A stretch of 64,000 bases of DNA, from contig CAIVKH010000124.1 of the NCBI GenBank assembly GCA_903906425.1, positions 35,981 through 99,980 of the forward strand. Direction: 5' to 3'. The position numbers were made by a program, and so were the translations under genes. Below are positions 30,973 through 36,672 of this stretch, piece by piece. The notes under the pieces were generated by a model. It saw only the letters and a program-made list of their open reading frames with translations. It ran no database searches and was not told the DNA's origin. Source of the DNA: an uncultured bacterium (GTDB lineage Bacteria; Verrucomicrobiota; Kiritimatiellia; CAIVKH01). Each line of letters opens with the position of its first letter. Positions within the stretch are counted from its first letter, which is position 1.

Positions 30973-31416
30973 GTGGATGTCGATACCGGCGGGGAGCGGT
31001 TTCTTTACATGCATCCCAAGTGGGGCCACCCGGCCTGGCAGTCCGATTCGCGCACCATCGTCGAGGCGGGCAATCTGCTTTTCGACAGCGACACCGGCAG
31101 GAGCCGGAAGATCCCCGAACTGCCGTATTTCGGTTCCGGTCATCCCTCCGCCAGTCCGGACAGCACGCTTCTGGTCACCGACACGACGATGGATCGCGTC
31201 GGCGGGAATCCGAAGGAGTGGGGAATCGTCGTCGCCGACATGCGCGGGACAAACTTCGTCGTGGTTCATCACTTCGACAATTCACGCGGCGCACACTCAT
31301 GGCGCTCGTCGCATCCGCATCCCGTGTTCAGCGCCGACGGACGCCGCATCTATTTCAACGTGAGCAGCGGCCCCTGGACGCAATTGTTCGTCGCCGCCCA
31401 AGAGAAGTTCCAATGA
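30973..31416 (+). pseudogene. C-terminal remnant of a TolB-like / oligogalacturonate-lyase-like beta-propeller gene.
   Basis: The 147-aa ORF opens with GTG only 47 nt from the divergent Kelch start. It reads like the last blades only (SHPHPVFSADGRRIYFNVSSGPWTQLFV) and has no N-terminal domain or signal peptide. Confidence 0.4.
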
Positions 31417-31487
31417 TTGGAAACAAGCGATGACGGAAACTTCCAATCATTGGAACTCCACGCTGCGACAGCTTCCAAAGACTGGAA
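31408..31487. repeat. REP cluster 8: two canonical copies plus one variant.
   Basis: 31408-31422, 31441-31455, and the variant ttccaaagactggaa at 31473-31487. Confidence 0.9.
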
Positions 31488-31508
31488 GAAATGCACAGGC
31501 ATTCGCGG

Positions 31509-31646
31509 TCACGCGCCCGGCCGGTTGCGGCGGATCGTTTCGCCGTTGGTCGCGTTGCCCGCCACGACGTGATCCTTGAGCGGGAAGATGCGCTCGTGCA
31601 TCGCGCCGGAAATCCGCGCGGGCCCCGGGGGAAACGCGGCATTCAT
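31509..31646 (-). pseudogene. Relic copy C of the E1 gene 3' end (last 45 codons plus stop).
   Basis: Hand translation gives MNAAFPPGPARISGAMHERIFPLKDHVVAGNATNGETIRRNRPGA*. The intact E1 end reads [46 protein letters not shown] counted 30 mismatches over 138 aligned nt. Confidence 0.8.
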
Positions 31647-31712
31647 CGCGGCCCGGGGATATAAATTGGCGCATCCCTTGCATCTTCGCTCAAGTGGCGT
31701 ACCTCTTCGCCC

Positions 31713-32201
31713 ATGAATAAACTACTCGTCACAGCCATCGCCGTTGTCGCGCTTGCCATCGGTGCCACCGCCAAAACCTACAGCCTGCCCAAGGAGGACT
31801 CGATCGCCTCCGTCACCATCCCGGATGGATGGAAGGTGGAAGCCGAGGACGAAAGCCTCACGATTACGAGCAAGGATGAAACCATCGAGATCACGATGGA
31901 GATCCTCGGCGAAGACCAGCTCGAAGGCGCCATCATCGAAAACGTGGGCTACCTGAAGAAGCACAAGGTCAACATCGACGAGAAGTCCGAGAAGAAGACC
32001 TCCGGCGAGATCAACGGCCTGAAGGCCACCTTCTATGCCAAGACCGGCAAGGACGAAGACGGCCCGTGCAACATCAGCGAGATCTTCGTGCGCCTGTCCG
32101 ACAAGAAGCTCATTTCGATGCTCTACTGGGCCCCGGGCAAAATCGAGCAGGCCCAGCTCGATGACATCAAAACCATATTGAACAGCATCAAGAAGAAATA
32201 G
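31713..32201 (+). CDS. Small secreted hypothetical protein.
   Basis: 162 aa with signal peptide MNKLLVTAIAVVALAIGATA and Lys/Glu-rich mature composition. No motif recognised. Confidence 0.6.
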   Translation: MNKLLVTAIAVVALAIGATAKTYSLPKEDSIASVTIPDGWKVEAEDESLTITSKDETIEITMEILGEDQLEGAIIENVGYLKKHKVNIDEKSEKKTSGEINGLKATFYAKTGKDEDGPCNISEIFVRLSDKKLISMLYWAPGKIEQAQLDDIKTILNSIKKK

Positions 32202-32308
32202 CCCCCGCCCGAAGAATGGATGAAAGAGCCGGCCCTCGTGGACCGGCTCTTTGCTTTTGCCCCGCACGGCACCCCGGTCGGGGTTGCGCCAGACACTCAG
32301 ACCGCCGA

Positions 32309-32680
32309 CGCGCCCAAGTCCGCCGCCAACTTGCCCAAGTCCGTGACGAACTTGATCAAGGGCGTCGCCGCCGTGATCCGGACACGGCAAACTTGCCCAA
32401 GGACGCCGCAGTTTTGCCCACGCTCGCGATGTCCTCGACCGAGGACGCCACGAACTCGCCCAATGGAACGATGGACATGCCCTGGTTCGTCACCACCTTG
32501 CCCAAGGAAGCGGCGAACTCGCCTAAGGCCGTCGCCAGCTCGCCCAAAGAAACGGTGAACTTGCCCAAGGACGCGACAGACTTGCCCAAGGTGCTCGTGA
32601 ACTTGCCCAAGAAAACGATGGACTTGCTCAAGGACGCGGCAAACTTGCCTAAGTTCACGACGAACTTGCCCAAGTTTATC
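32309..32680. repeat. Array of about 18 tandem 21-bp units with core CTTGCCCAAG. It may encode a heptad-repeat protein.
   Basis: Core starts at 32309, 32330 and 32351, then 14 cores from 32392 to 32665 spaced every 21 bp. The 32351-to-32392 step is 41 bp, that is 2x21 minus 1. Seven cores are exact. Open frames exist on both strands (NLPKxxx on plus, LGKFxxS on minus). Confidence 0.9.
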
Positions 32681-32887
32681 GCGTCCGGAAGCTAAATCTT
32701 CGTCCGATTAGTCACGCAGACGGCTTAATTGCAGCGCCTTGCGTCACAAGTGGCAAAATCATCAAAAAATGCCGCCTGTCGGCTGGCAACCCGGCATCCT
32801 TCCTCGCCCCGGTTCGCCGGGACGCTCCCTTCAAAGATTTGTTCGATTTGTGTACTGGCTGAATTCATGAACCTCCGTGCGGAGCAC

Positions 32888-32934
32888 TTCCAATCATTGG
32901 AAATCACCGCCGCGACAACTTCCAAAGATTGGAA
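32888..32934. repeat. REP cluster 9: one canonical copy plus one variant.
   Basis: 32888-32902, and the variant ttccaaagattggaa at 32920-32934. Confidence 0.9.
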
Positions 32935-32994
32935 AAAATCAGGCGCGGGCATTTCTGCCCGCGCCGGTTCGCGTCCATTCGCGTTGATTCGCGC

Positions 32995-33180
32995 TTACAC
33001 GCCAAGTCTGTTGCGGCGGATCGCTTCGCCGTTGGTCGCGTTGCTGGTCACGCCGTGATCATTGAGCGGGATGATGCGCTCGTGGATGGCGTCGAGGATC
33101 CATGCGGGCTGCGGGAAGAAGTCGTTTTCCATTTCGGCGCAGGGCGTGATCCAGTTGCGCGAGCCGACGACGACGGGCGG
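32995..33180 (-). pseudogene. Relic copy B of the E1 gene 3' end (last 61 codons plus stop).
   Basis: Aligns without gaps to 34219-34404 with 12 mismatches over 186 nt (hand count). Ten of the 12 are synonymous. Homology stops abruptly after ...gacgacgacgggcgg. Confidence 0.9.
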
Positions 33181-33197
33181 CGAGTACAAAAGATCGA

Positions 33198-33887
33198 CTA
33201 TTTGCTCTTTATCAGCCACGCAAGTACCGCGCCGAGAACGGCACTGAAAGTTGCCAGCAGAACTTTGCTTTTAGTGTCTCTTGAAGCACGTTCAGTCTCG
33301 GTTTTGCGGCTGCGCTGTGTCCATTCCTGAAGTGCAGGAATTGCGGCGGCAATTCGAGACATGGCATCTGCCAATTCGGTCACGATTTTCCGGTATTCGC
33401 GGATAAGATCTAATGTCTCGTGTTTTGTAATGTCCTTGTTCGTGCGAATCGTGGCGACTTGCTGTGCGATTTGTTCCAGACGAGGGCGGATCGTGTGATA
33501 ATAGTCTGGAAACACCGCGGTGATGCATTCGTTTGAGTAGCCAGCAAGCATCTGAAGCGTCTTTTCGCGGAGCGAAATTTGCAGCCAGTCCGCCGCATCA
33601 AAGAACGCGCGAAATTCATGGCCTATGGCTTTGCGAAGCGACTGCTCGATATATTCAGAATCCGCCGGATTCCGCTGTTCGAGCATTCCCAATTCACAGG
33701 CCATGGCTCGCATGATGTGTTCGAGCGCGTGCCGCTGTTCCATCGCGGGCTGGAGAAAATCCAGCAATTCGGGATCTGTTTCTTCGGCGAGAATAAAAAG
33801 CGACTTGCAATGATTATGGATTTCAACCAATTCGCGCCAGAGTCGCTCGCAGGGCTTTGCGGAATTGCCCGGCTCCGCGCCGCTCAT
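33198..33887 (-). CDS. Hypothetical helical protein with a C-terminal transmembrane anchor (cargo gene 2).
   Basis: 229 aa with C-terminal VLLATFSAVLGAVLAWLI. Contains QRHALEH, which fits an Rx4H pattern. About 47% GC in the one 60-nt line I counted. Its ATG overlaps the stop of the upstream small ORF (ATGA). Confidence 0.6.
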   Translation of the reverse strand: MSGAEPGNSAKPCERLWRELVEIHNHCKSLFILAEETDPELLDFLQPAMEQRHALEHIMRAMACELGMLEQRNPADSEYIEQSLRKAIGHEFRAFFDAADWLQISLREKTLQMLAGYSNECITAVFPDYYHTIRPRLEQIAQQVATIRTNKDITKHETLDLIREYRKIVTELADAMSRIAAAIPALQEWTQRSRKTETERASRDTKSKVLLATFSAVLGAVLAWLIKSK

Positions 33888-34084
33888 GGGAGGCTGCGCG
33901 CCATCACGTCGCGCCGCTTAGTTTCAAACCTCTCCGTCGTGTAGATGCGGGATGATGAAATCCTCACACTACCGCGAAATCGTCCGCTTTCGTTCGTGGT
34001 CACCTGAACCGTACGTTCCGAGACCGGACGATCCGAAGGAAAGTCACGCGTCAGAACGGCTCGCCATTCCAAGAGTTTCGTCAT
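33884..34084 (-). CDS. Small basic hypothetical protein (66 aa, cargo gene 1).
   Basis: ATG 34084 is preceded by GGAGGA with a 6-nt spacer. Translationally coupled to the 229-aa gene. No motif recognised. Confidence 0.5.
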   Translation of the reverse strand: MTKLLEWRAVLTRDFPSDRPVSERTVQVTTNESGRFRGSVRISSSRIYTTERFETKRRDVMARSLP

Positions 34085-34218: not shown

Positions 34219-36672
34219 CTATACGCCGAGCCGGTTGCGGCGGATCGCCTCGCCGTTCGTCGCGTTGCTGGTCACGACGTGATCCTTGAGCGGGATGATG
34301 CGCTCGTGGATGGCGTCGAGGATCCACGCGGGCTGCGGGAAGAAGTCGTTCTCCATTTCGGCGCAGGGCGTGATCCAGTTGCGGGAGCCGACGACGACGG
34401 GCGGGGCGTCGAGGTGGTCGAATGCAAGCTGGCCGAGGTTGGCGGCGATAGTTTGCATGATCGAACCGCGTTCGCTGGCGTCGCCGGCGACAAGCACGCG
34501 TCCGGTCTTCTTCACCGATTCGACGAGCGGTGTGTAGTCGAGCGGGTTGAGCGTGCGGCAGTCCCAGATGTCGGCGGTCATGCCGTATTTCTTTTCGAGA
34601 ATGTCGGCGGCTTCGATCGCGCGATAGAGCGTCGCGCCGATCGTGACGAGCGTGATGTCCTTTCCAACGCGGCGTTGCGCGGGCAGGCCGAACGGGATTT
34701 CGTAGTAGCCGGCGGGCACGGTCGGCTCGAACATTTCGCCGATGTCGTAGGTGCGCTGGCTCTCGAAGAACACGACGGGATCGCTTCCGGCGAGCGCGGT
34801 GTTGAGCAGGCCCTTGGCGTCGTACGGCGTGTTCGGGAACACGACCTTGAGGCCGGGGATGTGGTTGCAGATTGCGGTCCAGTCCTGCGAGTGCTGCGCG
34901 CCGTATTTCGAGCCGACGGACACGCGGAGCACGACGGGCATTTCGAGGACGCCCGCGCTCATGCTCTGCCACTTGGAAAGCTGGTTGAAGATTTCGTCGC
35001 CCGCGCGGCCCATGAAATCGCAGTACATCAGCTCGACGAGCGCACGCCCGCCGTCGAGCGCGTAGCCGACGGCCGTGCCGACGATCGCGCCCTCGGAGAT
35101 CGGCGAGTTGAAGAGGCGGTGATACGGCAGCGCCTCGGTGAGTCCGCGATAGCACGCGAACGCCCCGCCCCAGTCGCGATTTTCTTCGCCGTAGATCACG
35201 AGCGTCGGGTCGATCTTCGCGCGGTGGAGGATCGCTTCGAAGATGCCGTCGCGAAGCTGATAGACCTTGTTCTTCGGCGTCGGCTTGCCCTCGTGCATGC
35301 CGCTGCGGATCTTCTTCGCGATGGCGGCCACGCGCGGATTGTCGTCGCCGGCCTGCAGCAGATCGGGCTTGCGCGTCGTGTCGTACGATTCGACTTTGCG
35401 ATTCGAGAACATGAAGTCCTCGATCTTCGCGCCATCGAGCCGCGGCGAGATCGTCATGTCGCTCGCGAGCTTGAGCGACTTCGTGACGATGCCCTTGACG
35501 TTCGCGATGAGCTTCTGCTGCGCCGCGTCGTCGAGGATTTTGATCTTCTTGAGGTTCTCCGCGAACGTGATGATCGGATCAATCTTCGCCCACAGGTCGA
35601 GCTCCTCCTTCGTGCGGTACGACGACGCATCGGACGGCGAGTGACCGGAGAAGCGGTACGTCAGCGTGTCGAGCAGCACCGGCCCGTTGCCCTCTTCGAG
35701 AATTTTCCGCTTGCGCGCAATCGCGTCGGCGACGGCGAGCGGGTTGTAGCCGTCCACGCGTTCCGCGTGCATGCCGTCCTTGTTCACGCCGAGACCGAAG
35801 CGGGCGACGTAATCGTAGCCCATCGTCTCGCCGGACGTCTGGCCGCCCATGCCGTAGAAATTGTTCATGATGTTGAAAATGATCGGCAGCCCGCCGCGAT
35901 GCCCCTTTTCCCAGAGGTGATAGAGTTGGCCCATCGAGGCGAAGTTCATGCCTTCCCAAACCGGACCGCAGCCCATCGAGGCGTCGCCGACGTTGCAGAT
36001 AACCAGGCCCTTCTTACCGTTCACGCGTTTGAACAGCGCCGCGCCGGCGGAGATGTCGCCGGAGCCGCCGACGATTGCGTTGTTCGGATACACGCCGAAC
36101 GGCGGGAAGAACGCGTGCATCGAGCCGCCGAGGCCGCGATTGAAGCCGGCCTTGCGTCCGAAAATTTCCGCGAGCGCGCCGTACGTCAGAAAATCAACCG
36201 CGAGCTCCTTCACCGAGCCGCTGAAATGTTTTTCGACGATCGCGAGACACTCGCCGCCGAGATATTCCTTCATGATCTTTTGCAGCGACGCGTCGTCGAG
36301 CTTGTGAATCGCCGACAAACCCTTCGCGAGAATTTCGCCGTGCGAGCGGTGCGAGCCGTAGATGTGATCATCAACCGTCAGATGAAATGCCTGCCCGACG
36401 GCGGCCGCTTCCTGGCCCATGGACAGATGCGCCGGACCTTTGTGGTCATACGCGACGCCGTTGTACGAGCCTTCCGTCTTGATCGCGTGCAACATGCTTT
36501 CGAATTCGCGGATGAGGAGCATGTCCTCATAAATGCCGAGCAGCGCCTGTGCGCCGAGTGACTTCAATTCCTTCTCAATCGGCGTCGCATACTGGTTCAG
36601 CGGAATTTCCGGAGCCGTCAGCTTCGCGGGTTTACGTTCTTTTGCGGGATCTACAATTAGTGCCTTTGGCAT
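34219..36672 (-). CDS. 2-oxoacid dehydrogenase E1 component, fused alpha-beta subunits (ThDP-dependent).
   Basis: 817 aa. The alpha part carries [17 protein letters not shown]...[13 protein letters not shown]. The beta part carries [17 protein letters not shown]...[12 protein letters not shown]3 and E2 genes lie upstream on the same strand. Confidence 0.9.

Follow-up and report, generated by a model that had tools for sequence, protein, structure and literature searches.

The window, by which we mean the whole stretch of DNA analyzed here (64,000 nucleotides), carries a tandem array of 21-bp units built around a core of 11 to 12 nt with the palindromic arms CTTG and CAAG, ACTTGCCCAAG. The array lies inside a cargo islet, follows the terminator of a gene for a 162-aa protein, and ends in a tail that is the element's own part (tail sequence, TTTATCGYGWCCGGAAGCTAA). 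The features of the islet are collected in Table 1.

Table 1. Features of the cargo islet and of the 21-bp array in the window
Feature	Position	Strand	Remarks
Islet left border	31439..31699	-	REP doublet 31439-31492; older E1 3'-end relic 31510-31699
162-aa protein with N-terminal signal-peptide-like segment	31713..32201	+	From the ORF list; outside the repeat element
Intrinsic terminator of the 162-aa gene	32223..32260	+	Hairpin GAGCCGG to CCGGCUC, then UUUGCUUUUG
Array, register A	32298..32360	+	Three 21-bp units; read QTADAPK, SAANLPK, SVTNLIK
Degenerate 20-nt unit with 1-bp loss (-1 phase slip)	32361..32380	+	41-bp step; second copy without slip
Array, register B	32381..32674	+	Fourteen 21-bp units; six exact cores; decayed ones concentrated at 32413-32539
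Conserved tail TTTATCGCGTCCGGAAGCTAA	32675..32695	+	21 nt; FIASGS, stop; last stretch alike in both copies
Terminator-like hairpin	32771..32790	-	Separated from the tail by 75 nt; would block transcription into the array from its right side
Islet right border	32886..33185	-	REP doublet 32886-32939; old E1 terminator 32942-32965; E1 3'-end relic 32996-33185

Seventeen cores stand in strict 21-bp phase, three in register A (starting at 32309, 32330, and 32351) and fourteen in register B (from 32392 to 32665, spaced exactly 21 bp apart). The exact 10-mer CTTGCCCAAG occupies seven of them (32330, 32392, 32497, 32560, 32581, 32602, and 32665), and the remaining 10 carry one to three changes each. 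From 32351 to 32392 the core-to-core step is 41 bp, and the unit in between (GGCGTCGCCGCCGTGATCCG) has 20 nt, not 21. Tandem Repeats Finder detects the array over 32312-32675 with periods of 21, 42, and 63. A preliminary description of this DNA had proposed an array of about 18 units with seven exact cores and a single slip; the sequence and the unit table agree with it on the cores and their phase, the count comes to 17 cores in phase plus one 20-nt unit, and the 41-bp step is where it had been placed. The genome (6.66 Mb) contains 23 exact matches to the 10-mer, 13 of them in the window array and one other array, and a profile search of the whole genome found nothing beyond these two arrays; the array is far beyond chance.

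The position inside a cargo islet, likewise proposed at the outset, is confirmed by relic copies of the E1 3' end on both sides; the intact E1 3' end lies at 34220-34409, and each relic has a REP doublet alongside. Between the right-hand E1 relic and the array lie two minus-strand terminator-like hairpins (32771-32790 and 32942-32965), the second of which is carried with the relic. The 162-aa protein matches no family in Pfam, NCBIfam, PHROGs, or PADLOC and has only two homologues (60 to 63% identity) among 5.8 billion proteins; its gene is itself a mobile orphan. In both homologues, each in a different context, a strong hairpin and a T-run come after the stop codon and there is no array beyond, so a link of the array to the upstream gene was rejected. 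In the window, the terminator of this gene folds at -21.5 kcal/mol (z = -4.0), and the array extends right up to it.

The same genome holds a second array on contig C275 (C275:28005-28301), which has eight units, all with intact cores, and no slip. On its plus strand, an uninterrupted ATG-to-TAA ORF of 98 codons consists of a 37-codon nonrepeat leader, eight heptads x-x-x-(N/D)-L-P-(K/N), and FIVTGS followed by the stop; the heptads have the form x-(A/T/V/M)-(A/T/V/M)-(N/D)-L-P-K. DATNLPK is found twice among them, and TATDLPK and TAADLPK are present as well. Similarity between the two copies is confined to the array and the 21-nt tail and stops at the TAA; the leader is not conserved between them. 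The tails (32675-32695 in the window and C275:28281-28301) are identical at 19 of 21 nt, with the two differences at codon positions 2 and 1 and none at the six third positions. In the last unit of each copy, the core reads AACTTGCCCAAGTT. The ORF on C275 is called identically in two further assemblies, in one of which the contig is 99.96% identical over 2767 nt. Its surroundings showed neither a promoter-like site nor a terminator nor an obvious ribosome-binding site.

The surroundings of the intact copy are also a cargo hotspot. Paralogous GH29 fucosidase genes at C275:26114-27944 and C39:2336-4170 match at 89% identity along 1837 nt, 133 nt of which lie past the stop; the homology ends abruptly at C275:27944, beyond which the two contigs carry different low-G+C cargo. 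The C275 cargo consists of the 98-codon repeat ORF followed by an orphan of 226 aa that is encoded on the other strand. An AlphaFold model of the repeat product is poor (mean pLDDT, 57) and shows the repeats mostly as coil. Since there is a proline in every heptad, the peptide is probably extended or disordered. A coiled-coil heptad protein was rejected because of the fixed proline, a first spacer residue that is mostly D or E, and the predominance of coil in the model.

Which strand is translated, if either is, cannot be read from periodicity. The plus (NLPK) and minus (LGKF) frames share their third codon positions and are for that reason both GC3-rich; the preliminary description had noted this GC3 richness and had chosen no strand by eye. 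The genome is also depleted of TA (observed/expected, 0.37), so that open frames alone mean little. Codon usage does separate the strands. Scored with a codon table from 671 long ORFs that have a closed antisense frame, the plus strand is favored over its antisense by 27 bits in the window spacers, 14 bits in the C275 spacers, and 9 bits in the leader; it is ahead by ∼0.5 bit per codon, and the spacer codons are gene-like (+0.2 to +0.4 bit per codon). With the trinucleotide background of the genome as reference, real genes average +7.6 bits (standard deviation, 7.3); the leader reaches +5.5 bits when read in the ORF frame, and the remaining five frames give -9 to -40 bits. The leader's score is matched by 0.5% of Markov-2 random frames, 0.9% of uncovered intergenic frames (from DNA without any long ORF), and 3.6% of open intergenic frames, giving P values of 0.01 to 0.04 against real intergenic DNA. 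The leader could nevertheless be the relic of another gene that happens to sit in frame.

The substitutions among the units have a codon-like pattern as well. At positions 1 and 2 of spacer codons 2 and 3, we counted 32 transitions and 1 transversion from the majority base, a pattern that keeps A, T, V, or M, versus 8 transitions and 13 transversions at the third positions (Fisher P = 2e-6). Only one indel has occurred in 25 units, and the spacer third positions are near saturation (diversity, 0.51 to 0.64); the near-absence of indels despite such saturation points to a constraint on the frame, as had been argued earlier from the conserved phase of diverged units. Taken as evidence from sequence, these patterns suggest that the plus strand of the intact copy is probably translated.

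In the window, the copy lacks a leader, and no start follows the upstream terminator. Among its mutated cores, Leu has become Ser four times, Pro has become Thr, Leu, or Ile, and Lys has become Asn, Thr, Glu, or Trp. The lack of a leader and start, the one lost base, and the 10 of 17 mutated cores together mark this copy as a relic; it begins directly after the terminator, which leaves it without a usable start. Two ORFs had initially been read across it. The start of ORF 32220 is not real, its first 14 codons being the upstream terminator hairpin and T-tract, which are kept in the homologues that lack the array, and ORF 32216 owes its N terminus to the first units read out of frame. If the copy is dead, the -1 slip is ordinary pseudogene decay, and the intact copy, which needs no frameshift, leaves a programmed shift unsupported. 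Of the coding interpretation first offered, then, plus-strand xxx(N/D)LPK heptads and a pseudogene frameshift are supported by the intact one-frame paralogue, the codon usage, and the codon-position pattern of the spacers, and the programmed shift is not.

We consider that the window array is most likely a broken duplicate of a small orphan gene, of which the genome has an intact version elsewhere; we give this reading about an even chance. On this reading, the array derives from a small repeat-gene cassette that is confined to this lineage and has decayed in the window. The intact version on C275 would make a 98-residue peptide with no signal peptide, which may act as a multivalent string of (N/D)LPK motifs. 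The window copy, lying after a terminator, with no leader, one base lost, and 10 of 17 cores changed, would be dead. The core ACTTGCCCAAG may have a second role as nucleic acid, serving, by analogy with phage lambda, as a binding site phased every two helical turns.

Several results weigh against this reading, among them the lack of homologues, of expression signals at the intact ORF, and of a confident structural model. The array is absent from 40 relatives and from 400 genomes of the phylum, in which single matches are no commoner than those of a reversed-pattern control. No homologue of the leader or tail was found in 5.8 billion proteins or 1.8 billion representatives, and word-based searches were empty. 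An exhaustive phmmer search gave 200 matches; the 22 inspected are translations of unrelated 21-bp heptad minisatellites, several of them eukaryotic-looking, and none aligns to the leader. A search of relatives for heptad NLPK or LGKF repeat proteins had been proposed at the outset; the one intact version found is the paralogue in the same genome. A literature search by sequence returned human primer sequences only. Two of the phmmer matches were inspected as DNA and read AAT/AAC CTG CCC AAG, with CTG and not TTG for leucine; the nucleotide core is thus not a general property of NLPK repeats.

The core is conserved more strictly than a peptide would need. With AAC/GAC, TTG, CCC, and AAG as the reference codons, synonymous departures affect 5 of 82 core codons versus 31 of 75 spacer third positions (P = 1e-7). 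Pairwise diversity at third positions across the 25 units is 0.08, 0.00, 0.28, and 0.23 in the core and 0.60, 0.51, and 0.64 in the spacer; every spacer value exceeds every core value (exact permutation P = 1/35, a test unaffected by the shared ancestry of the units). The genome uses TTG for 12% of Leu, CCG for 54% of Pro, and AAT, GAT, and AAA at 41 to 46%, and since this usage differs from that of the core, free synonymous drift should have yielded those other codons. The core is thus constrained also as nucleic acid, beyond what the peptide requires, and the tail is probably constrained in the same way. The frozen synonymous sites are left unexplained by the peptide and are the only feature that could raise the element above an ordinary orphan repeat. 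Two constraints are superimposed here, a codon-position pattern typical of translation and a letter-by-letter conservation of the core that includes synonymous sites. Our guess is that the core is a phased protein-binding site that recurs every two helical turns.

Frozen synonymous sites are unexpected in a peptide gene and are a better fit to an element that acts purely as DNA. Such an element would never be translated; it would consist of partly palindromic 11- to 12-bp binding sites every 21 bp plus a 21-bp end and would travel as iteron-, centromere-, or titration-site-like cargo, with the open frames as by-products in a TA-poor genome. We regard this as unlikely but as the alternative to be taken most seriously. 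It accounts for a core and tail kept at synonymous sites while the spacers are saturated, for the palindromic arms and the AACTTGCCCAAGTT that closes each copy, for a phase kept without indels, and for a window copy that has no start and sits behind a terminator; open frames come cheaply under TA depletion. It leaves unaccounted for the three-periodicity of the spacers (R-Y-N; 32:1 versus 8:13) and the gene-like codon usage of leader and spacer, and neither copy has a rep, par, integrase, or DNA-binding gene beside it.

Partners and a mobile-element identity were sought at several levels. Pfam scans of sizeable ORFs within ∼8 kb of either copy found no Rep, Par, integrase, or DNA-binding gene; the domains and genes near the copies are MFS, CrcB, GT2, YfhO-like, Kelch, E1, nSTAND-kinase, E3, E2, and GH29. 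For plasmid or phage replication iterons, the 21-bp phasing is present (17 plus 8 units), but an initiator gene and an A+T-rich region are absent, and the candidate was rejected; the lowest G+C content of any 500-nt bin in 31000-34000 is 0.546, and no A+T-rich unwinding region was found there. A partition centromere was rejected in the absence of a ParA- or ParM-type NTPase operon within ∼8 kb of either copy. A plasmid or phage origin was rejected too, there being no blastn match in 72,556 plasmids or 50,697 phages, and the repeat ORF and its neighbors have no PHROGs or PADLOC matches. A regulon operator was rejected as well, because AACTTG..CAAGTT occurs 0 times and ACTTG..CAAGT 2 times outside the arrays, within the range of control palindromes. 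The DNA-level reading first offered for the array thus keeps a core conserved at synonymous sites, and it loses support in the lack of a rep or par gene, an A+T-rich region, or isolated sites.

Several known systems resemble the array in part. The origin repeats of phage lambda, which lie in gene O, and the iterons of the R6K gamma origin and pPS10 are direct repeats of ∼19 to 22 bp with two-turn phasing; the lambda repeats also show internal dyad symmetry and are embedded in frame in an ORF. Repeat length, two-turn phasing, a conserved core, and a less conserved spacer are alike in our arrays, which differ in having 9 to 18 units of candidate sites in chromosomal cargo islets, with no initiator domain or rep gene and no A+T-rich region. 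The sopC centromere of plasmid F consists of 12 units of 43 bp, each with an inverted repeat, and parC of R1 is likewise a tandem-repeat centromere. These also have many tandem units with a short palindromic core, and in them the units form a multivalent protein-binding platform; unlike them, the arrays described here have another unit length, no parA/parB or parM/parR operon alongside, and a gene-like ORF signal. Borrelia plasmids of the cp32 type carry the rep+ and rep- ORFs of 21-bp repeats, open on both strands. They share with our arrays the 21-bp repeat, heptad ORFs on both strands, small size, and the lack of an assigned function; the organism and sequence are unrelated, and in our case codon usage favors one strand.

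Exact-pattern scans of public genomes and metagenomes returned many unrelated arrays and a few diverged ones with the same core, mostly from Verrucomicrobiota metagenome-assembled genomes (MAGs). Because the search pattern was selected for this core, we treat these look-alikes as leads, not as relatives; their loci share no neighbors with this genome. Five of them (L025, L140, L075, L035, and L046) are 21-bp arrays with the core AA(C/G)TTG-NN-CAAGT, often with the identical 12-mer AACTTGCCCAAG. In a Verrucomicrobiae MAG, two paralogous arrays of ∼27 units (L025, G420:C10 ∼122100-122700, and L140, G420:C9 ∼198000-198650) have only GT, AC, GG, and CC as core centers, a set closed under reverse complement. 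A left flank of ∼90 nt and a central separator are conserved in the two, and the arrays lie upstream of an HtrA-like gene and of giant secreted-protein genes of the autotransporter-associated beta-strand-repeat type; an orthologous locus on a metagenome contig has only 5 units. Two arrays of a Spartobacteria MAG (L035 and L046, on G421:C17 and C58) contain both CTTGCCCAAG and CTTGGGCAA(A/G) units, with a 41-bp step in one of the arrays. Each array is found upstream of a giant secreted-protein gene, with a LacI-family regulator close by; the two secreted-protein genes are paralogues, as are the two regulators, which are 43% identical to each other (Pfam LacI, 2.3e-11). It is possible that L035 and L046 are operator arrays.

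Some look-alike arrays carry stops on either strand, and their centers flip between CC and GG and between GT and AC, which, along with the 41-bp step, speaks for a DNA element. They share with the window and C275 arrays the 21-bp period, the CTTG..CAAG arms, the presence of two arrays per genome, and one 41-bp step. They differ in lying upstream of giant secreted-protein genes, two of them beside LacI-family regulators, and in having variable centers and other flanks. A separate family of freshwater metagenome contigs (L058, L063, L064, L079, L089, L091, L098, L114, and L116) shares a stretch of two units, GACTTGCCCAAG-N9-GACTTGCCCAAG; two contigs of this family are also found in a viral collection under other locus ids.

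We think it unlikely, though worth considering, that the core is a true binding site and the cassette a mobile, independent platform that offers 9 to 18 sites in phase within a real or apparent ORF. Were this so, the platform could serve titration, silencing, or segregation, and it may join a wider, undescribed class of CTTG-NN-CAAG 21-bp arrays found in Verrucomicrobiota upstream of giant surface-protein genes. If the constraint on the core reflects protein binding, the cassette would be a portable array of phased sites without linked rep or par genes and might connect to arrays of this kind in further PVC-group genomes. Taken alone, a small orphan repeat gene with a dead copy in cargo islets is no major discovery.

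It is improbable that the array is a neutral, functionless minisatellite produced by replication slippage. Such periods are common in public data, and no partner gene or homologue was found; in a neutral minisatellite, however, a core of 11 nt and a tail of 21 nt would not stay intact as the spacers become saturated, and one would expect neither the avoidance of indels nor types of substitution specific to codon position. A mutational cause of the variable spacers, CpG decay or hypermutation, was excluded, since the genome is CpG rich (observed/expected, 1.41), TG and CA are not in excess (0.99), and many of the spacer changes are transversions.

Products at the RNA level and other peptide classes fared no better. 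The window has no Rfam match and folds no better than shuffled sequences (z = -1.74 on the plus strand and +0.76 on the minus strand), so a structured RNA or known RNA family was rejected. A CsrB-like GGA sponge was set aside because GGA is found, by eye, in a minority of units, and a multicore RiPP precursor was set aside because there are no maturation enzyme genes beside either copy and the leader is not conserved between them.

Coding by the minus strand, which would give LGKFxxS heptads from an ORF at 32356-32673, seems to us very improbable. This frame is open in both copies, and because it shares third positions with the plus frame, the GC3 and R-Y-N patterns fit it equally well. Codon usage, however, runs against it by the margins given above, with a negative antisense score in the spacers; the one start available to it is a TTG within the first repeat, immediately preceded by a stop; the C275 version of the frame is closed in the leader; and the N/D exchange that is frequent on the plus strand would read as F/S on the minus strand. 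Codon usage, a missing start, and the closure in the C275 leader were the reasons for rejecting the LGKF ORF.

We find it scarcely credible that the window copy is functional, through a programmed -1 or +1 ribosomal shift or as two products. Both of its halves are open, each in its own frame, but the intact paralogue is read in a single frame without a shift, the degenerate unit GGCGTCGCCGCCGTGATCCG has no slippery X XXY YYZ heptamer, the only start of the upstream half is an ATG ahead of the terminator hairpin, and the cores near the slip have decayed. An assembly artefact in the slip or in the array length is equally hard to credit: short-read MAGs are error-prone at tandem repeats, but a contig from a JGI metagenome matches 31755-32840 (1086 nt) at 100% identity, slip included, and gene calls in an ENA assembly have identical spacing, with the same 494 nt from the stop of the 162-aa gene to the end of the array (the JGI and ENA copies are possibly not independent samples of the window sequence), and the units are divergent enough for unique assembly.

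The two arrays also bear on how strands are assigned in TA-poor genomes, where neither open frames nor GC3, seen on both strands, are enough to tell which one is coding. It can help to compare the diversity of synonymous sites within units and to count transitions and transversions by codon position. With the strong dinucleotide bias of this genome (TA, 0.37; CpG, 1.41), off-frame stops are rare and long shadow ORFs are the rule; a 760-aa ORF at 34279-36561, for example, lies opposite the real E1 gene.
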